A stretch of DNA of 64,000 bases from Heptranchias perlo (Eukaryota), in the NCBI RefSeq assembly GCF_035084215.1, contig NC_090331.1:39060001-39124000 (forward strand), given 5' to 3'. This document shows positions 11,920-57,332 of the stretch, piece after piece (within the stretch, counting starts at the first letter, position 1; each line of letters starts with the position of its first letter). The position numbers were made by a program, and so were the translations under genes. The notes beneath the pieces are model-generated. The model did not search any database and was not told the origin of the DNA. It saw nothing but the letters and a program-made list of their open reading frames with translations.

Positions 11920-12668
11920 TTTTGACCACCACCACAAACTTTGTTTCCTCTCGACCAATTCCATCCCCCTCCCTGGCCATTGTCTCAGGCTGAACCGGAC
12001 TATTTGCAGTCTTGGTGTTGAGTTTCCAACCTCCGTCACAAAGACTGTCTACTTCCACCTCCGTAACATTGCCTGCCTCTGCCTCTCCCTCTGCCTTAGC
12101 CCATCTGCCGCTGAAAACCTCACTGATGCCTTTGTCACCTCCAGACTCAACTATTCCAATGTTCTCCTGGCTGGCCTCTCATCTTCCACCCTCCGTAAAG
12201 TTTAGCTCATCCAAAACTGCTGCCTGTTTCCTATCTCGCATCATGTCCCATTCACCCATCACTCCTGTCCTCGCTGACCTACATTTGTTCCCAGTCCCCC
12301 AATTTAAAATTCCCATCTTTGAGTTTAACTCCCTTCATGGCCTTTCTCTGTAACCTCATCCAGGCCTACAACCATCTAAGAACTCTCCATTCCTCTGATT
12401 CTGGCCTTTAGTGCATCTCCCCCTCCTTCACCCCATCATTGGCATCCATGCCTTCAGTTGTCTAGGCACGACACTCTAGAATTCCATTCCTAAACCCCTT
12501 TGCCGCCACCTTTAAGGCACTTCTTAAAACTCACCTCTTTGACCAAGCTTTTGGTCACCTCTCCTAACTTCTTTGTCTCAGCATCCATTTTTGTCTGATT
12601 ATGGCTTTGTGAAAAGCCTTGGGATGTTTGTTTCCATTAAAGGTGCTATATAAATTTAAGTTGTTGTT
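11920..12668 (+). mobile_element. L2-clade LINE 3' fragment
   Basis: gctgaaaacctc...gcctttgtcacctccagactcaactattcc (AFVTSRL.Y). Tail ataaatttaagttgttgtt. Confidence 0.8.
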
Positions 12669-25458: not shown

Positions 25459-26627
25459 TTATACTCCCTTACATCTGTCTTCTTTTTCTTTCTCCTCTCT
25501 GGCTTTCTCTGGTTTTGTTACACTGTCATAGGATGGTGGAGATGTGGTAGAAGGAGTCATATCAGTTTTGTCAGTGGTGGAGATTTCATTAAACTTATCT
25601 ATTACCATTTCTTCTTTGCCAGGTAAAAGCTCACTTGTTTTACCTTTTTCTTTGAACATGAAAGAGGCTTGTTTCAATGTTCGCCTAATCAGATAGCGCC
25701 TGAAAGCTCTTTGAATTATAGTTGCAGACACATGTTCCTGTTTACGTCGTAGAGTGGTTGTAATTGGCTCATATGATACCTTGGACGGATTGGATGCCAT
25801 AAAGCGTTCTTCCATCTGTTGTCGAAGAGCATCCATTTCTCCACCCTCACCCAGCACACGCTTTGTAAATGCGAATAAGATATCAAGACAATGAATTCTA
25901 TCTCCACTAACCATGGGCAAGTCCATAGCTATAAGTTGTACTTTGTTGGGTTTTGCCACACGAAGAGGTGGTTCCAAGGCATCTGCAAAATCATGCAATC
26001 TACCATACTCCATAAATTGAGTTGCATCTGAATCAAACTTTTCCCAAACTTCATAAAACATCTCAAAGTCATCCTCACTCAGTGGTTCAGCACTTTCCTC
26101 TGTAGCAACACTGAAATTCTCCAAAATAACAGCAATGTACATATTTATGACAATCAAGAAAGATATTATGATGTAACTGACAAAGAAGAAAATTGCAACC
26201 GGTGGGTTACCACAATCTCCTTTGATAAGACTGCCTGGGTTATCTTTTGTTGGGTCACAGTCTGGTGGCGCACTGTTTAGAATTGGAGCCAGTAAGCCAT
26301 CCCAGCCAGCAGATGTAGTGATCTGAAACAGACAGATCATGCTGTTTCCAAAAGTTTCAAAGTTGAACATATCATCAATACCAGATTCCTTCTTCACATA
26401 AGCAAAATTAGACATCGCAAATATGGCATAAATGAACATGACTAAGAAAAGCAACAGACCAATGTTGAACAAGGCAGGAAGAGACATCATCAATGCAAAC
26501 AGCAACGTACGAATTCCTTTAGCGCCCTTGATTAAACGTAGGATACGACCAATCCTGGCTAGTCGGATAACTCTAAATAATGTTGGTGACACAAAGTATT
26601 CTTCAATGATTTCATCTAAGAACATGC
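25459..26627 (-). CDS. scn2a: Voltage-gated sodium channel alpha subunit (SCN1A/2A/3A lineage, SCN2A-like), terminal coding exon: DIV S3-S6 and C-terminus
   Basis: Translation [44 protein letters not shown] (DIV S4), TTSAGWDG pore loop, [10 protein letters not shown] motif, PPSYDSV PY motif, TAA at 25459-25461. Acceptor ttttcttttag|GC at 26628/26627. The exact paralogue name is uncertain. Confidence 0.95.
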
Positions 26628-27482
26628 CTAAAAGAAAAAAAAGATATTCATGCATTAGCCACAGTTTTGCCTAACAGTAATTTTAGTGTGATAATACATC
26701 GAGTATCATAAATAACCTGCAATATGTTTCAAAACAGTAACACATTGAAGAATTGAGAAAATGTCACAAACTACAAGAGCAAAGCTCAGGCTATTTTCTA
26801 ATCACCTTAATACCAAGATATGTTACTGCCTTAGGCCAAATTCCAGTCAGTGTATGCTACTTTCTTTATAACATATATACAAACTTCAAGATTTTTTTTA
26901 CTGTTTTTCACTAAATGCTTTCTATTTTTCATATTTGATAGTTAAAGTATCATAGCAGACAGTAATAAATGTCAGGCCCTTATGAGAGAATTGTCAATTT
27001 TTGCAAGCATTGAAATTGTACCATATGATTTAACAAATAGTAATACTGGGATTTATTTAACTAAATGAAACGGGACAATATCAAAATATCACAGCCTTTA
27101 TCTTATTATAAATAATTGCTAATGAATCCCAACTTTACATTTAAGTAAATCTTCTGTGTTAACTTCTACAAATGTTTTCTACATTGCATTAATAGTTGAA
27201 CAATACTACAAAACTGTAAATTCATTCCTTTCGAAATTAATAACAGTGGCAATTATGTAATTTTTTGTTTTAGTCTTGCAGAATGCAATGCATTTTTGAA
27301 CTACCTGCAAGCATTTATTAAGTTTTGTTAAATAATACTCATGTTACATAACTTTTCACATAATAACTTCAATTGCTGGTATTTTGTCAAACATCAAAAC
27401 CAGTACATTCAATTCCAAAGACAGAAAAATTTGAAGGAATAATTATTTTTGAACATTGCTTTAAACCAAATAATTTTCTTAC

Positions 27483-27753
27483 CTATAATCGAAAGAATGA
27501 CCACCACAAAGTCGAAAATATTCCAGCCTATTGTAAAGTAATAATAGCGGAGTGCAATCATTTTAAGCACACACTCGCTTGTGAAAAGGACAATGAAAAC
27601 CAGGTTGATCCAAGATAAGATGTCGTTCATCTCGTCACTTTGATCATCAGTCTCCACCATCATGGTGACCATGTTAAGGCAGATGAGAATCATGATGGTG
27701 ATATCAAAGACTTGCTGGGTTACAAAATCAAACACCATCCCTTGGATCTTGTT
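27483..27753 (-). CDS. scn2a: Nav alpha subunit exon (271 bp): DIV S1-S3
   Basis: ttttatag|AAC AAG ATC CAA GGG ATG: [39 protein letters not shown]...VVILSII G|gtaaga. Its phase joins the next exon as G|GC. Confidence 0.95.
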
Positions 27754-33184: not shown

Positions 33185-33376
33185 TGTGGAGATGCCGGTG
33201 ATGGACTGGGGTGGACAAATGTAAGGAATCTTACAACACCAGGTTATAGTCCAACAAATTTATTTTAAAATCACAAGCTTTCGGAGATTATCTCCTTCGT
33301 CAGATGATTGAATGAAAAGGTTCTCAAATCGCATATCTTATACGATGTTGGGACAGCATCACACCAATCAAAAGGT
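33185..33376 (-). mobile_element. Short Penelope-derived element with hammerhead ribozyme
   Basis: Shares the tail ccccagtccatcaccggcatctccacatca with 55736-57318. 12-bp target duplication gttgaattttga at 33173-33184 and 33377-33388. Confidence 0.85.
33269..33309 (-). ncRNA. Minimal type I hammerhead ribozyme
   Basis: AATCAT CTGACGA A GGAG ataat CTCC GAAA GCTT GTGATT. Confidence 0.8.
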
Positions 33377-36864: not shown

Positions 36865-36969
36865 CAAGGGCCTGGGTATAGGTTTCTGTGGTTTCTTGGA
36901 GCCAAGCTTTTTCATAGCATTGTAATATTTCTTTTGTTCTTCAGTCATGAAAATATCTTGACCTCCAAA
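36865..36969 (-). CDS. scn2a: Nav alpha subunit exon (105 bp): DIII-DIV linker with IFM fast-inactivation motif
   Basis: [35 protein letters not shown]. Acceptor ...cactttac|TTT (AC), donor TTG|gtaaga. Not in the ORF track. Confidence 0.95.
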
Positions 36970-37738
36970 GTAAAGTGACAAAGCAAACTGGTTATAACCA
37001 CATACATAGCAAACTGTCAATTTTACAACATTCAGTTAGACTTTTATAAAATACACCCCTTACTTTTATCTCAATAAAAGTGAGACCACATGAACTGTAT
37101 TGGTAAACTATGGAACATATATGATTACCTCTAAAGTATGAAATCTTTCACAAAATGATTTTTTAAAGTCTGTAAATATAATGGTACTTTGGAAATTTAT
37201 TAGGAAAAAATACTAGAAATTTTGCTTTTGGATTTTTCTATTGTACATTTGAAATTATAAAATGTTCTTTCCTTTTCCTTTTATAACTTTGCACCAGCCT
37301 GAAACCTTATTGCCCAGCATCTTTTGCACCAATTAATTTATGTGTCACAGATCTTTTGCCTTGGTCTTCCAGCAGTAATTCCTGGTGATAATTAATCCGA
37401 GTTTCACCTGGTCTTAATTGAGCCAGACTACATAAGTTCAGGCAAGTGAACAGTCAAGACAAATTCTTTAGGGGATTGAGAAACACAACACTGTTATTAA
37501 GAGAAGGCTTTTTTTTAAAAAAACTAGCAATAGAACTAATTTGTGCAATTCAATTTTAAATTCATCTTCCATTAATATTGAGATTTGCTTCTGAGTTTTA
37601 TATGTTCATTTCAACACTGTTTTTCTTATTCTGTAATGTAACTGAATTTAGTAACGTTTAATCTTCCCTTATCACCATGCAGCTCAATAAGTTGGATTTT
37701 ATGCTGTTTTATAAGAAGTATTGTGACAAAAATTATAA

Positions 37739-41144: not shown

Positions 41145-41655
41145 ACGGAAGATCGGGGGGTGGGGGGGGGAGATCGGGGGGAGAGGGGAAGGTTGGGGGA
41201 ACATGGTGGGTGAGAGGGGCAGATCGGGGGGGAGAGTGGAAGATCGGGGGACATGAGGGGGGAGAGGGGAACATGGGGGGGGAGAGTGGAAGATCGGGGG
41301 GCAAGGGGAACATCAGGGGGACATGGGGGGAGAGGGGAACATCGGGGGGGGGAAGAGTGGAAGATCAGGGGGACATGGGGGGGAGAGGGGAAGATCGGGG
41401 GGAGAGGGGAAGATCGGGGGGAGAGGGGAAGATCGGGGGGAGAGTGGAAGATCGGGGGGACATGGGGAGGAGAGGGAAAGGTCGGGGGGACATGGGGAGG
41501 AGAGGGAAAGATCGGGGGGAGGGGAAGATCGGGGGTCATGGGGGAGAGGGGGAGATCGGGAGGTGAAGAGGGGGAGATCGGGGGGACATCGGGGGGTGAA
41601 GAGGGGGAGATTGGGGGGACATCGGGGGGTGAAGAGGGGGAGATCAGGGGGTAGA
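41145..41655. repeat. G-rich minisatellite (gatcggggg / ggagaggggaa / acatggggg units)
   Basis: Visible imperfect tandem units within a MITE-like left end that starts at 40909. Confidence 0.85.
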
Positions 41656-42327
41656 ATGACCACCGCACAGTCCTCGTGGAGATAAAGTCCCGACTTCACA
41701 CTGAGGACACCATCCAACGTGTTGTGTGGCACTACCACCGTGCTAAATGGGATAGATTCAGAACAGATCTAGCAGCTCAAAACTGGGCATCCATGAGGCA
41801 CTGTGGGCCATCAGCAGCAGCAGAATTGTATTCCAACACAATCTGTAACCTGGTGTTGTAAGATTCCTTACATTTGTCCACCCCAGTCCATCACCGGCAT
41901 CTCCACATCATATCTAAGGGAGGATATACTTGCCTTAGAGACGCAGCAACGAAGGTTCACTAGATTATTTCCTGGGATGAGAGGGTTGCCCTATGAGGAG
42001 AGATTGAGTAGATTGCGCCTATACTCTTTGGAGTTTAGAAGAATGAGAGGGGATCTCATTGAAACATATTAGATTCTGAGGGGGCTTGACAGTGCAGAGG
42101 CTGAGATGTTGCTTCCCCTGGCTGGAGAGTCTAGAACTAGAGAGCATAGTAGCAGAATAAGGGGTCGGCCATTTAAGACTGAGATGAGGAGGCATTTCTT
42201 CACTCAGAGGGTTGTGAATCTTTGGAATTCTCTACCCCACAGGGCTGTGGATGCTGAGTCATTGAGAATATTCAAATGTAAGGAATCTTACAACACCAGG
42301 TTATAGTCCAACTGTTTTATTTGAAAA

Positions 42328-42364
42328 TCACAAGCTTTCGGAGGCTTTCTCTTTCATCAGGTGA
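42328..42364 (-). ncRNA. Hammerhead ribozyme motif with a stem II mismatch
   Basis: TCAC CTGATGA A AGAG aaagc CTCC GAAA GCTT GTGA. A G>A change breaks the first stem II pair. Confidence 0.6.
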
Positions 42365-42382
42365 GTGTGGGACTCAAAACAC

Positions 42383-42419
42383 TCACCTGACGAAGGAGAA
42401 AGCCTCCGAAAGCTTGTGA
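42383..42419 (+). ncRNA. Minimal type I hammerhead ribozyme
   Basis: TCAC CTGACGA A GGAG aaagc CTCC GAAA GCTT GTGA. Confidence 0.8.
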
Positions 42420-44534
42420 TTTTCAAATAAAACAGTTGGACTATAACCTGGTGTTGTAAGATTCCTTACATTTGTCAACCCCAGTCCATCACCGGCATCT
42501 CCACATAGAGAATATTCAAGGCTGAGATAGATACATTTTTGGACTCTAGGGGAATCAAGAGATCTGGGGATCGGGCAGGAAAGTGGAGTTGAGGTCAAAG
42601 ATCAGCCATGATCTTATTGAATGGCGGAGCAGGCTCGAGGGGTCATATGGCCTACTCCTGCTCCTATTTCTTATGTTCTTATGTTCTGGGATGAAAGTAA
42701 CAATTCTCTTTGAATCTGTACATTTGGAAAGTACTGTTTCTTTTTATATTTTCTTAAGGGTGGCACAGAAATTTGCATTAGACAGTATGCGATGTCCGAA
42801 GTGTGACTCACAGCTGAAGTACGAAGGACAGAAAGTGCTCAAGTGCATAAAATTTTTATAATTTGATATGGATTGAAGGATAGAGCAGTGCTACTTCCCA
42901 GAAATCCATTACGGTTCAATTCCAGTAATTATGCAATGTTTATCTCATAATTTGTATTTTTGGCAAGGATTTCATCAAGCATTCCAGATCTATCTATCTT
43001 GCTGATTGTTGCTTTCGTTGACAATGTATCAAGTCTACTTAAACTCTCTTTCATTTTCACCCGTAGCTTTTTCATTACCATTTGTTGAGTACACATGATG
43101 ACCACTGTTGCTTAATATGTGCAATAATTTATACATATATTTCATCTGCCACTGTTCTGTCCACCTGCGTATTTTATATAACTAAATCTGTGTCCCTGGC
43201 TATCTCCTTAGTTTTGTATCATCTGCAAATTTGACCAGTTTGCATTGAGCTTCTGAATCCAAAATGGTAATGTAAATTAGCAACAGTAAGGTTTCCAAAT
43301 CTGATCTCTGGGGTACTCCACTCTGACATCGTTCTCCCAACATGTACTTCCTGCTTCAACTATTTGTTATTCATTCCCAGGTTTAATCTTGAATCCCTTC
43401 CCAGGTTTTATCTTTACTCCTCTGCATCAATTACACTCACTGCTGTGGTTATTTAAATATTTAAATATGTACGTTCTGTCCAGCATTGCCAAGGCAGTAA
43501 TGATGTTGTGAATCACAGTCTTATTTGAATACGCTGACCTGTCTTTGGGCAGGGGTTTTGGCATCCAGTGGAATTGATAATGGCTGCATAAATAGGTGGA
43601 GATACAGTAGTATAGGTCCCTGCCCAATTTTGTATCCCTGTCTGCCTGAGTAACATTGGAAAATGGGCACTAAACTGGAGAAAAAAACAGCCTTTTATGT
43701 TTACTTTCTTAACAGATTGTTTAACTCATCAAGAAATGTAGCAGGGCATTTGCACCAAAATCAAATGTATACAAAGATTAAAATATTCATTTTATTCTAA
43801 AAATACTATGGGACTAAAATTCTGGGGAGCACAGAAAACTAGGATGAACCAAATTTGGGATAGAATCCAGATCAGCCAGGTTCCCACCCCATTTGCTCGG
43901 CATTGCAATTCTGATCATGGGTGTGGGGAGGTGGGGGGGCGGGAGAGACATGTGCAGGCATACTTTGAGTGTGCGTCTGGGACATTCTTGCCCTACAATG
44001 TGAATTCCATCCAGCTTGCCACTTTTAGGTCCAGCAGATCCAATGCCAGCTGAGAGAAGGCATAGGTTCCAAGACTTCAAAGATTTTAAGGCAAAAAATA
44101 ATAAATCCCAATTACCTTCTGAATTCTGCCCCACTGTTGCTGCAGGTAATGATGTTTCTTTTTTAACGTTATCCTTCGGCCTGATAGTGACCTTGGGCTC
44201 CCCCCTTGCAGAAGCAGGGGGCTGCTCTGATTTTCTAGCGGCACCACAGGGTGGGAACCTCTATTGCAAGCATGGGCTACCTGCCCTCAGTCTGGGCCAC
44301 CTGCCCTCAGTCTGGGCCATCAGCCCTCAGTATGTAAATTAACCTGTCTCCACAAGGCCCCTCTCAAAAGGGTCGGCAGAATTTTGGACCTTGAATTAAG
44401 AAATGTTCTCTGATTCTGTACATGCCTGTAATTTAAGTTTTATAACATTGTTCATTAAAATTACAAAATTTAAATTAAAATTACAAAAATAGATCAGTTT
44501 TTGAGCTGGAATAGGAAGAAAAGAGATACATACA

Positions 44535-46061: not shown

Positions 46062-46728
46062 ATAGGATACACCATCTGATAGACAGAATATAGAATCAGT
46101 GACACAAAAGAGAATCGGACAGATACATTGTAGAATCAGATTCACAAATACAGAAAAACACAGAACAGATACACAGGATATAGAATTAGTTTAAAAAAAA
46201 GAACGTGGCAAAGAACAACAGAAAATGAGGAACACATGAGAGAGCATCAAATATACAGAATAGTGCATCAAATATAAAGTAGAACCATATATAGAGCAGA
46301 GACTTCCATAAAGAGCACAGAAGCAAAAGAACAGAAAAACAATAGATACATAAAGGCTATTAAGAAAAAGCAGTAGAGTATACCAAATGTTCCTATGTTC
46401 CTAAATGTAGTGAATAAGAATGAAAAATATACTCTACAATTACTACACATATAGGGAACACAAGCTATAACAAAAGTTACTGCAGAGGTGATAGATGGAA
46501 AAGAATATCCTTAAAAAGACAGTAAATTGATAAATGCAGATTTTGAGAAAAAGGAAATATCCCCCATAGTGTTTTTATCCCTTGGAAAATTACAGATCTG
46601 ACCTTGAGGGAAATCCGCACAAAATTGCAGTCCTACTGGAACTTTATAAACACAATTTTAAGGCATTATATTGCTCTATGACCATAAATATTAGTTGTGT
46701 TTATTTTCTTATCAGGCAAAATACTTAT

Positions 46729-46866
46729 CTTTTTCTTCTGTTGATTGAAGTTGTCAATAATGACACCAATAAACAGATTTAAGGTGAAGAAAGATCCAAA
46801 GATGATGAAAATGACAAAGTAAAAATACATGTACAGGTTGACTTCATGGGAGGGTTGCTGCTCCAC
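46729..46866 (-). CDS. scn2a: Nav alpha subunit exon (138 bp): DIII pore-S6
   Basis: ctttag|GTG GAG CAG: [46 protein letters not shown]|ataagt (AT donor). Confidence 0.95.
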
Positions 46867-48780: not shown

Positions 48781-48857
48781 AAAGCCTCAGCCACCTTTGA
48801 ATTGAAGATTTCATTGTCCCCATTAAAACAACAACAACAACAACAACAACAACAATA

Positions 48858-49358
48858 GTGATAGGGGACTCAATTGTAAGGGGAATAGACAGGCGTTTCT
48901 GCGGCTGCAACCGAGACTCCAGGATGGTGTGTTGCCTCCCTGGTGCAAGGATCAAGGATGTCTCGGAGCGGCTACAGAACATTTTGGAGGGGGAGGGCGA
49001 ACAGCCAGCTGTCGTGGTGCACATAGGCACCAACGATATAGGTAAAAAAGGGGATGAGGTCCTAAAAGCAGAATATAGGGAGTTAGGAGGTAAATTAAAA
49101 AATAGGACCTCAAAGGTAGTAATCTCAGGATTGCTGCCAGTGCCACGTGCTAGTCAGAGTAGAAATAGGAGGATATTTCAAATGAATACGTGGCTAGAGG
49201 AATGGTGCAAGGGGGAGGGATTCAAATTCCTGGGACACTGGAAACGGTTCTGGGGGAGGTGGGACCAGTACAAACCGGATGGTCTGCACCTGGGCAGGGC
49301 CGGGACCGCTGTCCTAGGAGGAGTGTTTGCTAGTGCTGTTGGGGAGGGTTTAAACTAA
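48858..49358 (+). CDS. CR1 ORF1 C-terminal SGNH-esterase-like domain (5' truncated)
   Basis: IGDSIVRG, CLPGA, VHIGTND and DGLHL blocks. Ends GLN-TAA. Confidence 0.88.
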   Translation: MIGDSIVRGIDRRFCGCNRDSRMVCCLPGARIKDVSERLQNILEGEGEQPAVVVHIGTNDIGKKGDEVLKAEYRELGGKLKNRTSKVVISGLLPVPRASQSRNRRIFQMNTWLEEWCKGEGFKFLGHWKRFWGRWDQYKPDGLHLGRAGTAVLGGVFASAVGEGLN

Positions 49359-49441
49359 AGTGGCAGGGGGTTGGGAACCTGAGCAGGGAGAGAGAGGAAA
49401 GCGTAACAGGAAGGGACAGAAGGTATGGAGTAATAGGTAAA

Positions 49442-52297
49442 GTGTTAAAAAAGGAAAAAGCAGGAACTAAGCGTCACAAAACAGATTTGAAAGTTCTTTA
49501 TCTGAATGCACGTAGCATTCGTAATAAAATGGACGAGTTAACGGCACAAATAACTACGTATGGGTATGATCTTGTGGCCATTACAGAAACATGGCTGCAG
49601 GGTGACAACGACTGGGAATTAAATATGCCAGGGTATTTAACAATCAGGAAGGACAGGCAGGAAGGAAGGGGAGGTGGGGTGGCTATGTTAATAAAGGAAG
49701 GAATCACTGTAATACAGAGAAATGATATTGGGACAAAGCATCAAGATAATGAAACAGTTTGGGTGGAGATAAGGAATAATAAGGGAAAAAAAACATTAGT
49801 GGGCGTAGTATATAGGCCTCCTAATAGTTGCAACTCTGCTGGAAGAAGTATTAATCAGGAGATAGTCGGGGCATGTAATAAGGGAACAGCCATAATTATG
49901 GGGGATTTTAATTATCATATTAACTGGACAAATCAAATTGGGCAGAGCAGCCTTGAGGACGAGTTCATTGAGTGCATCAGGGATGGATTTCTTGAGCAGT
50001 ATGTAACTGATCCTACAAGGGGGCAGGCAACCTTGGACCTGGTCCTGTGTAATGAGTCAGGATTAATTAATAATGTCCTAGTTAAGGATCCCCTTGGAAC
50101 GAGCGACCACAACATGGTTGAATTCCATATCCAATTAGAGGGTGAGAAGGTTGATTCTCAAACAAGCATACTGAGCTTGAATAAAGGAGACTATGATGGT
50201 ATGAGAGCGGAATTGATTAAAGTGGACTGGGAAAATAGATTAAAGGGTAAGACGGTACATGAGCAGTGGTGTTCATTTAGGGAGTTATTTTACAACTTTC
50301 AAAATAAATATATTCCACTGAGGAAAAAAGGGTGTAAAAGAAATGACAGCCATCCGTGGCTAAGTAAAGAAATCAAGGATAGTATCCGACTAAAAACAAG
50401 GACATATAAGGTAGCCAAACTTAGTGGGAGGATAGAAGATTGGGAATTCTTCAAAAGACAGCAAAAAGTAACTAAAGGATTGATTAAGAAAGGGAAGTTA
50501 GATTATGAAAAGAAATTAGCAAAAAATATAAAAACAGATAGCAAGAGTTTCTACAGTTATATAAAAAGAAAAAGGGTGGCTAAGGCAAACATAGGTCCCT
50601 TAGAGGATGAGACCGGGAAATTAATGGTGGGAAACATGGAGATGGCAAAAATGCTGAACAAATATTTTGTTTCAGTCTTTACAGTAGAGGACACTAAGAA
50701 TATCCCAACACTGGACAAACAGGGGACTCTCGGGGGGGAGGAGCTAAATACGATTAAAATCACTCAGGAGATGGTACTCAGTAAAATAATGGGACTCAAG
50801 GCGGATAAATCCCCTGGACCTGATGGCTTCCATCCTAGGGTCTTGAGGGAAGTGGCAGTAGGGATTGTGGATGCTTTGGTGATAGTTTTCCAAAATTCCC
50901 TGGACTCAGGAGAGGTCCCGGCAGATTGGAAAACTGCTAATGTAACACCGTTATTTAAAAAGGGTAGTAGGCAGAAGGCTGGAAATTATAGGCCAGTTAG
51001 CTTAACATCTGTGGTGGGTAAAATTTTGGAGTCTATTATTAAGGAGACAGTAACGGAACATTTAGATAAGCATAATTTAATAGGACAAAGTCAGCATGGC
51101 TTTATGAAGGGGAAGTCATGTCTGACAAATTTGCTTGAGTTCTTCGAGGATATAACGTATAGGGTGGATAAAGGGGAACCAGTGGACATAGTGTATTTAG
51201 ACTTCCAGAAGGCATTCGACAAGGTGCCACATAAAAGATTATTACTTAAGATAAAAAATCACGGGATTGGGGGTAATATTCTGGCATGGGTGGAGGATTG
51301 GTTATCGAACAGGAAGCAGAGAGTTGGGATAAATGGTTCATTTTCGGACTGGCAACCAGTAACCAGTGGTGTTCCACAGGGGTCGGTGCTGGGTCCCCAA
51401 CTCTTTACAATCTATATTAACGATTTGGAGGAGGGGACCGAGTGCAACATATCAAAATTTGCAGATGATACAAAGATGGGAGGGAAAGTAGAGAGTGAGG
51501 AGGACATAAAAAACCTGCAAGGGGATATAGACAGGCTGGGTGAGTGGGCGGAGATTTGGCAGATGCAATATAATATTGGAAAATGTGAGGTTATGCACTT
51601 TGGCAGGAAAAATCAGAGAGCAAGTTATTTTCTTAATGGCGAGAGACTGGAAAGTACTGCAGTACAAAGGGATCTGGGGGTCCTAGTGCAAGAAAATCAA
51701 AAAGTTGGTATGCAGGTGCAGCAGGTGATCAAGAAAGCCAACGGAATGTTGGCTTTTATTGCTAGGGGGATAGAATATAAAAACAAGGAGGTATTGCTGC
51801 AGTTATATAAGGTATTGGTGAGACCGCACCTGGAATACTGCATACAGTTTTGGTCTCCATACTTAAGAAAAGACATACTTGCTCTCGAGGCAGTACAAAG
51901 AAGGTTCACTCGGTTAATCCCGGGGATGAGGGGGCGGACATATGAGGAGAGGTTGAGTAGATTGGGACTCTACTCATTGGAGTTCAGAAGAATGAGAGGC
52001 GATCTTATTGAAACATATAAGATTGTGAAGGGTCTTGATCGGGTGGATGCAGTAAGGATGTTCCCAAAGATGGGTGAAACTAGAACTAGGGGGCATAATC
52101 TTAGAATAAGGGGCTGCTCTTTCAAAACTGAGATGAGGAGAAACTTCTTCACTCAGAGGGTAGTAGATCTGTGGAATTTGCTGCCCCAGGAAGCTGTGGA
52201 AGCTACATCATTAGATAAATTTAAAACAGAAATAGACAGTTTCCTAGAAGTAAAGGGAATTAGGGGTTATGGGGAGCGGGCAGGAAATTGGACATGA
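49442..52297 (+). CDS. CR1 ORF2: APE endonuclease + reverse transcriptase (frame is open from 49334)
   Basis: YLNARS, ITETWL, VYRPP, MGDFN and SDH endonuclease motifs. RT motifs [27 protein letters not shown] and KFADD. Confidence 0.95.
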   Translation: MLKKEKAGTKRHKTDLKVLYLNARSIRNKMDELTAQITTYGYDLVAITETWLQGDNDWELNMPGYLTIRKDRQEGRGGGVAMLIKEGITVIQRNDIGTKHQDNETVWVEIRNNKGKKTLVGVVYRPPNSCNSAGRSINQEIVGACNKGTAIIMGDFNYHINWTNQIGQSSLEDEFIECIRDGFLEQYVTDPTRGQATLDLVLCNESGLINNVLVKDPLGTSDHNMVEFHIQLEGEKVDSQTSILSLNKGDYDGMRAELIKVDWENRLKGKTVHEQWCSFRELFYNFQNKYIPLRKKGCKRNDSHPWLSKEIKDSIRLKTRTYKVAKLSGRIEDWEFFKRQQKVTKGLIKKGKLDYEKKLAKNIKTDSKSFYSYIKRKRVAKANIGPLEDETGKLMVGNMEMAKMLNKYFVSVFTVEDTKNIPTLDKQGTLGGEELNTIKITQEMVLSKIMGLKADKSPGPDGFHPRVLREVAVGIVDALVIVFQNSLDSGEVPADWKTANVTPLFKKGSRQKAGNYRPVSLTSVVGKILESIIKETVTEHLDKHNLIGQSQHGFMKGKSCLTNLLEFFEDITYRVDKGEPVDIVYLDFQKAFDKVPHKRLLLKIKNHGIGGNILAWVEDWLSNRKQRVGINGSFSDWQPVTSGVPQGSVLGPQLFTIYINDLEEGTECNISKFADDTKMGGKVESEEDIKNLQGDIDRLGEWAEIWQMQYNIGKCEVMHFGRKNQRASYFLNGERLESTAVQRDLGVLVQENQKVGMQVQQVIKKANGMLAFIARGIEYKNKEVLLQLYKVLVRPHLEYCIQFWSPYLRKDILALEAVQRRFTRLIPGMRGRTYEERLSRLGLYSLEFRRMRGDLIETYKIVKGLDRVDAVRMFPKMGETRTRGHNLRIRGCSFKTEMRRNFFTQRVVDLWNLLPQEAVEATSLDKFKTEIDSFLEVKGIRGYGERAGNWT

Positions 52298-55280: not shown

Positions 55281-55793
55281 AGTTTTCTCAGCACAGTGTG
55301 AACCAATGCAGGCACGAAGATGAAAATGGCAAAATGCAATCAGCCTCACCTGTACTGGTGCTGTCAACACACTGTCACATGGCTTGGAAACACAAATTAG
55401 AAAGACTCACATGTAGCACCAGAGCTTGGAGATTGGAGTTGGAGGAATCAAGGAAAAGTAATCAAATGAATCTGTAAATTCTCATGTGACAGAAAAGCAT
55501 GAGGTAAAATAGCATGATGGAAATAGAGTGGCCGGAAGTGTGTAATAGAAATAGGCATGACAGCTACAGGAAATAAGAGTTACACTTACAGGAATAATGT
55601 GCATATGCAAGAATATATATTTTTTTCCACTCAGCATGCTTAAACAGTAACTCTGAATGAAAGCCTTTCCAGGTTAATTTTTACTCTGATGAGTTTCTTT
55701 CAATATATTCATATTCTCTATTCTCTTCACCCATGATGTGGAGATGCCGGTGATGGACTGGGGTTGACAATTGTAAACAATTTTACAACACCA

Positions 55794-57008
55794 AAGAACT
55801 TTACCCAAACACACGGAACAGCCATAGGGACCAAATTCGCACCCCAATACGCCAACATTTTCATGCACAAGTTCGAGCAGGACTTCTTCACTGCACAGGA
55901 CCTCCAACCAACACTATACACCAGATACATCGACGACATTTTCTTTCTATGGACCCACGGTGAGGAATCACTGAAGAGACTACACGATAACATCAACAAG
56001 TTCCATCCCACCATCAAGCTCACCATGGACTACTCCTCAGGATCGGTTTCTTTCTTGGACACACGAATCTCCATCAAAGACGGGCACCTCAGCACCTCAC
56101 TCTACCGCAAGCCCACGGACAATCTCACAATGCTCCACTTTTCCAGCTTCCACCCTAACCACGTCAAAGAGGCCATCCCCTATGGACAGGCCCTGCGAAT
56201 ACACAGGGTCTGCTCAGACGAGGAGGAACGCGATGGACACCTACAGACGCTGAAAGACGCCCTAGTAAGAACGGGATATGATGCTCGACTCATCGATCGA
56301 CAGTTCCGACGGGCCACAGCGAAAAATCGCGTAGACCTCCTCAGAAGACTAACACGGGACGCAACCAACAGAGTACCCTTCGTCGTCCAGTACTTCCCCG
56401 GAGCGGAGAAACTACGCCATGTTCTCCGCAGCCTTCAACATGTCATCAATGATGACGAACACCTCGCTATGGCCATCCCCACACCTCCACTACTCGCCTT
56501 TAAACAGCCACCCAACCTCAAACAAACCATCGTTCGCAGCAAATTACCCAGCCTTCAGGAGAACAGCGTCCACGACACCACACAACCCTGCCACGGTAAC
56601 CTCTGCAAGACATGCCAGATCATCGACACAGATACCACCATCACACGAGAGGACACCACCCACCAGGTGCACGGTTCATACTCCTGTGACTCGGCCAACG
56701 TTGTCTACCTCATACGTTGCAGGAAAGGATGCCCCAGAGCATGGTACATTGGCGAGACCATGCAGACGCTGCGACAACGGATGAACGGACACCGCGCAAC
56801 AATCGCCAAACAGGAGGGTTCTCTCCCTGTCGGGGAACACTTCAGCAGTCATGGACATTCAGCCACCGACCTTCCGGTAAGCATACTCCAAGGCGGCCTT
56901 CGAGACACACGACAACGCAAAATCGTCGAGCAGAAACTGATAGCCAAGTTCCGCACCCATGAGGACGGCCTCAACCTGGATCTTGGGTTCATGTCACACT
57001 ACACGTAA
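55794..57008 (+). CDS. Penelope-like RT (partial) + Cys-rich linker + GIY-YIG endonuclease
   Basis: QTHGTAIGT, RYIDDIF, FLD, YRKPT, PCHGNLCKTC, VVYLIRC...WYIGET...RMNGH and GLN. No internal stop. Confidence 0.92.
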   Translation, partial: KNFTQTHGTAIGTKFAPQYANIFMHKFEQDFFTAQDLQPTLYTRYIDDIFFLWTHGEESLKRLHDNINKFHPTIKLTMDYSSGSVSFLDTRISIKDGHLSTSLYRKPTDNLTMLHFSSFHPNHVKEAIPYGQALRIHRVCSDEEERDGHLQTLKDALVRTGYDARLIDRQFRRATAKNRVDLLRRLTRDATNRVPFVVQYFPGAEKLRHVLRSLQHVINDDEHLAMAIPTPPLLAFKQPPNLKQTIVRSKLPSLQENSVHDTTQPCHGNLCKTCQIIDTDTTITREDTTHQVHGSYSCDSANVVYLIRCRKGCPRAWYIGETMQTLRQRMNGHRATIAKQEGSLPVGEHFSSHGHSATDLPVSILQGGLRDTRQRKIVEQKLIAKFRTHEDGLNLDLGFMSHYT

Positions 57009-57228
57009 CCCCACCAGCGAACAAATGTTATCTGTTTTTAATATAACGGGTCATTGACTGTCTTCCTTATCTCTCTCTCTCTTTTTTTGGGGGGTTTGTA
57101 TATTCGGTGGCCTTTTTAGGTGACACCTTTCTGTCTGCTCACTGTGATTGCCTTGGCAACGGGCAGTAATCACCAGGCATTGTTATGTGATCTTAAAATG
57201 CGAAGGATTCGAAAATGTCATTTCCACA

Positions 57229-57265
57229 CCGCCTGAGGAAGGGGAAAGCCCCCGAAAGCTTGTGG
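57229..57265 (+). ncRNA. Minimal type I hammerhead ribozyme in the Penelope 3' repeat
   Basis: CCGC CTGAGGA A GGGG aaagc CCCC GAAA GCTT GTGG, followed by AATAAA. Confidence 0.82.
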
Positions 57266-57332
57266 GATTAAAAATAAAATTGCTGGACTATAACTTGGTG
57301 TTGTAAAATTGTTTACAACTCTTCACCCATGT

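Follow-up and report, generated by a model that had tools for sequence, protein, structure and literature searches.

The motif at 57229-57265 of the shark DNA analysed here, a window of 64,000 nucleotides from Heptranchias perlo (contig NC_090331.1), is very probably the pLTR minimal hammerhead of a young, abundant Neptune-type Penelope-like element (PLE), one that is likely to cut slowly and to depend on a partner or a protein, and whose copies in the genome derive mainly from uncut RNA. The motif class has already been published (Cervera 2014; Frangieh 2024), and the original prediction that identified this motif was a real observation, correctly named. Minimal hammerheads that have the extra base and the palindromic stem III, and that covary, were described in PLEs of fish, amphibians and reptiles by Cervera and De la Pena (2014, PMC4209133), and the role of hammerheads in PLEs is called an open question in PMC8557442 and PMC11167929. 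The present analysis adds a pile-up of 5' ends at a subfamily-specific start, a pair of 3'-end sites, and copy ends that form no spike at the predicted cut. Because the family has intact 902-aa ORFs and some 86,000 copies that are nearly identical, it puts genome-scale numbers on the role of the hammerhead. The fold is selected, yet about 0.2% of copies start at the cut, which argues against cleavage making the usual template. As a fossil record of events in vivo, the genome also lends support, from a second clade, to the internal priming demonstrated in vitro with an anole element.

Penelope-like insertions of the window

The motif is a plus-strand minimal type I hammerhead of the subfamily with a G-C pair in stem II, a stem II type with 2,530 exact matches in the genome. 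Its stem I pairs CCGC (57229-32) with GTGG (57262-65); the core CTGAGGA (57233-39) is followed by an extra unpaired A (57240), by stem II (GGGG at 57241-44, loop AAAGC, CCCC at 57250-53) and by GAAAGCTT (57254-61), which runs into the 3' strand of stem I. Motif and stems were confirmed as first described, and cleavage after CUU, predicted between 57261 and 57262, is upheld as a prediction. Stem III had been given as the palindrome AAGCTT. Its inner AGCU (A15.1-G-C-U16.1) can pair, but the outer A and U lie outside helix III, and we take them to be core positions A14 and U17 of the standard hammerhead numbering. The palindromic stretch with positions 15.2-16.2, A-G-C-U at 57257-60, is invariant in recurrent haplotypes, and there is no intramolecular helix III.

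The form CTGANGA-N5-30-GAAAGCTT occurs four times in the window, at 57233 (+), 42387 (+), 42360 (-) and 33303 (-); among 300 dinucleotide shuffles of the window, 286 had no such motif, 14 had one and none had more. The four motifs of the original prediction (CTGANGA-A-stem II-GAAAGCTT) are present in number beyond any shuffle, one of them with its GGAG starting at 42395 instead of the 42394 first given. They represent three independent insertions, since 42360- and 42387+ belong to one, and the 42360- arm has AGAG/CTCC, an A.C mismatch where the conserved G10.1-C11.1 pair is expected; the prediction was silent on both points. An Rfam scan of the window at E up to 1 returned no hammerhead family and three weak unrelated matches. 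Folding of single motifs was uninformative, being no better than that of shuffles (z -1.6 to +0.4).

The 57229-57265 motif lies in an ORF-bearing insertion that spans 55736-57318 between 13-bp target-site duplications (left copy 55723..55735, right copy 57319-57331). On the plus strand a 5'-truncated Penelope-like ORF (55797..57008; RVT_1, E 5e-6) encodes the end of the reverse transcriptase (RT) core, the thumb, a C-x4-C-x2-C linker and a putative C-terminal endonuclease domain, and 388 of its 402 amino acids are identical to residues 490-891 of protein P0001. The hammerhead core is 225 nt 3' of the stop of this ORF, which is 97% identical to an intact 902-aa ORF of a tandem array, and the identity of the motif as a PLE minimal type I hammerhead is thereby borne out. 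Between ORF and core lie a TATA-like box of the pLTR, CTTAAAA (57192..57198, +), a putative promoter element that aligns with the TATAAA/TATATA boxes of other subfamilies, and an initiator-like GTCATTT (57217..57223, +), whose A at 57220 is the likely transcription start and coincides with the modal 5' end of the subfamily's short copies. The 3' part of the pLTR (57262..57318, +) ends at the putative RT start site 1, 57 nt past the predicted cut. The tail is on a short inverted arm (55736..55794, -), which consists of 24 nt of pLTR end and a tail of about 36 nt reaching to the putative RT start site 2. The insertion is truncated and dead, it runs antisense to a sodium-channel gene, and its motif has no same-strand partner within it.

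The insertion at 42276..42507, between copies of a 12-bp target duplication (42264-75 and 42508-19), is a head-to-head stub with two hammerhead arms, 42360- broken and 42387+ intact, and carries its tail on the plus arm. The arms are 98% complementary, and the whole folds as one hairpin of about 96 bp that buries both motifs (-169.8 kcal/mol, z -24.7); this near-perfect intronic hairpin would be present in transcripts of either strand, and tens of thousands of such head-to-head hairpins could be editing or small-RNA substrates. A solo stub on the minus strand (33185..33376; target duplication 33173-84 and 33377-88) has an intact hammerhead (core 33303-33275) and a tail. Finally, a tail-bearing pLTR end fragment without a hammerhead lies at 41843..41911 (+); a search for a target duplication around it found none.

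The host gene encodes a voltage-gated sodium-channel alpha subunit on the minus strand, with its last-exon ORF at 25459-26670, Ion_trans matches at 27412-27753 and 46669-46866 (minus) and an SCN5A-like IQ match also among its exons; an exon at about 36865-36970 (minus) presumably encodes the inactivation-gate linker. The 33303- stub, sense to this gene, and the 42.3-kb insertion are intronic. The 57233 copy is likely intronic too, but a scan of 49 of the 91 unmasked minus-strand ORFs turned up no upstream sodium-channel exon at 46.9-64 kb. The idea that the window copies were co-opted to regulate sodium-channel pre-mRNA might draw on the 33303- copy, whose intact motif lies in an intron in sense orientation, but it deserves next to no credence and was rejected: four motifs in 64 kb come close to the mean density of the genome (about 26 per Mb), two of them (57233+ and 42387+) point antisense to the gene, the broken 42360- lies hidden in a hairpin, and no intact same-strand partner lies nearby.

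The rest of the window holds LINE fragments with RT and APE-type endonuclease, which we take to be CR1-like, and LINE and Penelope pieces crowd the sodium-channel introns. A frame of 987 aa at 49334-52297 (+), which is unbroken and has domains for endonuclease and RT, looks young and is presumably a CR1-like LINE ORF2; the frame upstream of it (48801-49358) we assume to be esterase-like. A G-rich degenerate tandem repeat with units of 8-20 nt occupies 41156-41624, and a weak Rfam match to the Histone3 stem-loop at 12579-12623 (-; 24 bits, below the gathering score) is likely due to chance.

The family and selection on the hammerhead fold

The genome-wide motif search proposed with the original prediction was carried out as a pattern search of the 3.25-Gb genome, in which a loose pattern gave 85,893 matches against 15 with a reversed control. 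A tight 32-nt pattern gave 76,026 matches, and a 3' anchor search recovered 98,948 pLTR pieces (59,123 + 39,825). Tandem and inverted arrays of full 3081-bp units, 99.5-100% alike, were found at L031:3000-9250, L033, L034-L035 and L038. The first of these has three same-strand motifs 3081 bp apart and two intact 902-aa ORFs; in tandem units the ORF's ATG comes directly after the tail, about 92 nt past the predicted cut. Because full units with intact ORFs are so alike, the family looks recently active. Long copies of different subfamilies have ORF ends with 83-100% identity but differ strongly in the 30-45 nt from TATA box to hammerhead, which may point to turnover of the promoter or to exchange of pLTRs.

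The protein of the element has DKG and YIDD motifs and the C-x4-C-x2-C linker (in P0001 and the window ORF). We take its C-terminal endonuclease to be of the GIY-YIG type, having recognised it by eye from its motif; a Pfam search with the element protein at E up to 1 detected RVT_1 only and not the endonuclease domain. A CX2-5CxxC linker between RT and endonuclease is described as a mark of Neptune and Nematis (PMC8557442), and by this one motif the element is probably a Neptune-type PLE. Other features of EN+ PLEs were found as well, namely tandem pLTR-ORF units, an inverted arm, a tail of 30-40 nt and a target duplication.

Conservation of the fold was assessed in 23 haplotypes seen at least twice, out of 52 with at least nine matched upstream bases. 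In all 23 the core is invariant except at N7 (CUGANGA ... GAAA ... UH, in type I order, with H17 being U). The unpaired nucleotide between 9 and 10.1 (A at 57240) is likewise invariant across recurrent haplotypes, and the G10.1-C11.1 pair is present in 23/23 haplotypes and in three of the four window copies, having been lost at 42360-. Pairing was found in 93% of the cells of the haplotype table, a level that 0 of 500 shuffles matched and that compares with 20-56% in slid controls; pair 1.5-2.5, the fifth of stem I, is unpaired in 12 of the 23. Changes on both sides of a pair occur at two pairs, both from the G-C lineage, with several wobble changes besides, and by the count of both-sided pairs 452 of 500 shuffles did as well. 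For stem II pair 10.3-11.3, exact genome counts were 6,566 G-U, 2,530 G-C and 77 A.C, the remainder being mostly A-U (92 among the first 100 tight-pattern matches listed). Since neutral transitions after insertion would give about as many G-U as A.C, we infer that source elements with wobble or compensated pairs were the ones amplified, and those with A.C were not.

The covariation claimed in the original prediction thus holds genome-wide, whereas the window alone offers just two compensatory pairs between lineages. The claim of selection for catalysis has to be divided. The pair counts and haplotypes show selection for the hammerhead shape in the source elements, not in these dead copies; selection for cutting itself may be read from the conserved shape, and the ends of genomic copies are without a spike at the cut.

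Ends of the genomic copies and the predicted cut site

Ends were mapped in a sample of contig C1 that comprised 241 distinct motif copies, taken from the top of each pattern's list of matches: 97 of 100 tight-pattern places, the first 30 loci and 40 regions of the G-C type, and 40 regions of the G-U type. This sample is purposely enriched for the two minor types and counts the two arms of an inverted pair separately; where 150-nt flanks were identical, or where less than 150 nt of flank was available, copies were merged or dropped, and 60 loci from the 3' anchor search were excluded. Measured upstream of C3, 140 of the 241 copies end at 0-20 nt, 10 at 21-40, 9 at 41-116 and 82 at 117 nt or more. 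Among the first 132 copies, breaks numbered 0.025 per base within 20 nt of C3 and 0.001-0.002 past 40 nt. Short copies of the G-C subfamily begin 13 nt before C3 in 13 of 58 cases and at 12-14 nt in 26 of 58. The mode is 16-17 nt in the subfamily whose TATA box is 46-47 nt upstream and 10 nt in that with the box 39-40 nt upstream. Starts at 12-14 versus 15-17 nt are distributed 26/3 and 3/16 in the 13-nt and 16-17-nt subfamilies (Fisher p 3e-7). An earlier comparison of the median 5'-end position with TATA spacing, on fewer copies, was not significant (p 0.54), whereas this modal test on the larger sample was. The modal 5' ends are initiator-like and lie 27-30 nt from the TATA-like box, and they likely mark a subfamily-specific transcription start. 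Transcription of Drosophila Penelope is reported to start inside the pLTR (PMC2377424), and rotifer pLTRs are reported to carry TATA plus Inr motifs (PMC3846280).

The pile-up might instead reflect RT stalling, stem I fold-back or an endonuclease nick just upstream. Such causes would suit ends that are scattered across 0-20 nt, the joining of 6 of 30 inspected +1 copies to their partner via stem I microhomology, and medians that did not follow TATA spacing. We consider them rather unlikely, however, as the modal end shifts with the initiator-like sequence (13, 16-17 and 10 nt) while stem I is fixed, and few 5' ends lie beyond the initiator position.

Past the cut, 123 of the 241 copies have their 3' end at +50 to +62, 93 at +84 to +100, 10 beyond and 15 elsewhere, so that two sites stand out, about 56 and 92 nt after the cut and about 36 nt apart. 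By analogy with the anole element these would be internal RT start sites. A head-to-head partner accompanies 112 of 150 short copies; 95 of these 112 combine a site-1 arm with a tail arm, 3 are site-1/site-1, none is tail/tail and 14 are unclear. At one locus (L153, G000:C1:2628657-2628798) the head-to-head joint runs exactly through the AAGCTT palindrome.

Copies starting at the predicted cut were counted exactly for the two major 3' sequence types, leaving aside the G-C subfamily, with patterns that by design miss about half of true breaks: 172 start at +1, 195 at +2 and 99 at -1, and 73,490 read through. Genome-wide, these two types have no spike of starts at +1 (172 versus 195 at +2, p 0.25). 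By raw count, starts at the predicted cut make up about 0.2% of comparable copies, and more than 99% run through it. Starts at +1 do exceed those at -1 (172 versus 99, p 1e-5), a possible weak footprint of cutting. Breaks anywhere from +22 to -6 affect about 7,000 of the 98,948 pieces (about 10,000 corrected, some indels included), and 2 of 30 loci broken in this interval ended at +1. These counts suggest that nearly all sampled cDNAs came from RNA intact at the cut site. Short internal deletions spanning or starting at the predicted cut were seen in a break-selected search at L114, L115, L130, L242 and L260; they could be RT jumps over a nicked template.

Proposed mechanism and comparison with known elements

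In the mechanism that we propose, the TATA/initiator promoter of the pLTR would start RNA 10-17 nt before the core and so place the motif in the 5' leader. In tandem arrays a second motif lies 3081 nt downstream on the same strand, and helix III (AGCU) is predicted to be formable solely between two copies, either motifs 3081 nt apart or motifs in trans. Lunse et al. reportedly described dimer cleavage. Cutting after CUU would yield unit-length uncapped RNA. RT would start at the internal sites about 56 and 92 nt past the cut, and from the first pLTR it would copy just 100-140 nt or so to the RNA 5' end; that RT starting in the first pLTR soon meets this end would explain why stubs whose motif is intact exist in the tens of thousands. 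The energy model ranks the double-hammerhead fold behind the best fold of two strands, by 3-12 kcal/mol, and so unfavoured a dimer agrees with the low dimer activity described in PMC4209133 and the need for protein described in PMC11167929. Dimer cleavage of minimal hammerheads is also cited in PMC6765202.

Two other accounts of the fold bear on this mechanism. The fold could be a non-cutting structural signal in the 5' leader, for protein binding, packaging or translation, that derives from a hammerhead and in which cleavage is vestigial. It would then be natural that more than 99% of copies run through the cut site, that the double-hammerhead fold is not the most stable, that the anole ribozyme is described as dispensable for insertion in vitro, with no RNA ends at its cut site (PMC11167929), and that Naiad elements are described as thriving without a hammerhead (PMC8557442). 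Such a signal is quite improbable, since 23/23 haplotypes have the same catalytic core, with variation instead at N7, in loop 2 and in the sequence upstream, and since the anole motif is reported to cut with protein and to obey C3/G8 rescue (PMC11167929). In the model of Cervera and De la Pena, conversely, the ribozyme cuts tandem RNA to units that form circles for rolling-circle RT, and once religated, the junction would pass for an uncut site. The model fits the tandem arrays, whose 3081-bp units are perfect, and also the 82 of 241 copies that reach at least 117 nt upstream, past the probable start. A circle is endless, but in 140 of 241 copies the 5' end falls no more than 20 nt upstream of the core, at the initiator position of the subfamily, and we find the model highly improbable here, although it could apply to the long minority of copies.

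The preferred reading, a minimal pLTR hammerhead that cuts slowly and with help while most copies come from uncut RNA, might be extended by supposing that each insertion is made by a two-RT complex using both internal start sites, and that two RNAs are held in it, so that trans cleavage would occur only inside the element's particle and serve as a template timer. This extension, which is prompted by the 95 of 112 head-to-head stubs that pair a site-1 arm with a tail arm, both copied from one stretch of RNA that reaches to the transcription start, is unlikely. If it were true, a complex with two RNAs would bring two minimal hammerheads together, trans cleavage after or beside reverse transcription would destroy or uncap the template, and the approximately 86,000 copies would record in the genome where transcription and priming start and when cleavage happens.

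Our literature search found no report of the present shark family or of the 5'-end pile-up. Cartilaginous fish are not named in the results and discussion of PMC4209133; its supplements, and those of a 2026 preprint (bioRxiv 10.64898/2026.07.22.740005), may list chondrichthyan motifs. The minimal hammerheads of metazoan PLEs, as described in PMC4209133, resemble those found here in their type I core, unpaired base between 9 and 10.1, G10.1-C11.1 pair, palindromic 15.2-16.2, helix I of 4-6 bp, pLTR location and families with compensatory changes, and in occurring mostly as solo copies with some close opposite-strand pairs. The same source gives a helix II of 7-8 bp in Schistosoma, versus 4-5 bp here, and about 4,000 copies in coelacanth and 9,000 in Xenopus, versus about 86,000 here. 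Non-LTR retrozymes, reported in one chondrichthyan species (bioRxiv 10.64898/2026.07.22.740005), are likewise described as short non-coding type I hammerhead pieces from PLE pLTRs. They form head-to-tail non-coding arrays, whereas the present stubs are solo or head-to-head (112/150) and the tandem units carry an ORF. Retrozyme identity was rejected because no head-to-tail non-coding array was found; there was one doubtful stub repeat, 2.2 kb apart, in L037.

The Neptune and Nematis EN+ PLEs, as presented in PMC8557442 and PMC3846280, share with the present family the CX2-5CxxC linker, 5' truncation, the inverted arm, a tail of 30-40 nt on one arm, target duplication, and TATA and Inr-like motifs in the pLTR, and probably also the C-terminal endonuclease. 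The target duplications are 12-13 bp in the window versus 8-10 bp in the rotifer elements. PAc, the Poseidon element of Anolis carolinensis (Frangieh et al. 2024, PMC11167929), is described from biochemical evidence, whereas the evidence on the present family is genomic. Poseidon is without the Cys linker of Neptune and Nematis that is present here, and the PAc ORF starts within the ribozyme, in contrast to an ATG about 92 nt after the cut in the shark element. Like the shark family, PAc has tandem pLTR-ORF units with a hammerhead near the ORF start. Its main RT start, 85-92 nt past the cut, compares with a tail end about 92 nt past the cut here. In PAc two internal RT start sites define the tail and uncut RNA is the main template, and both appear to hold for the shark family too.
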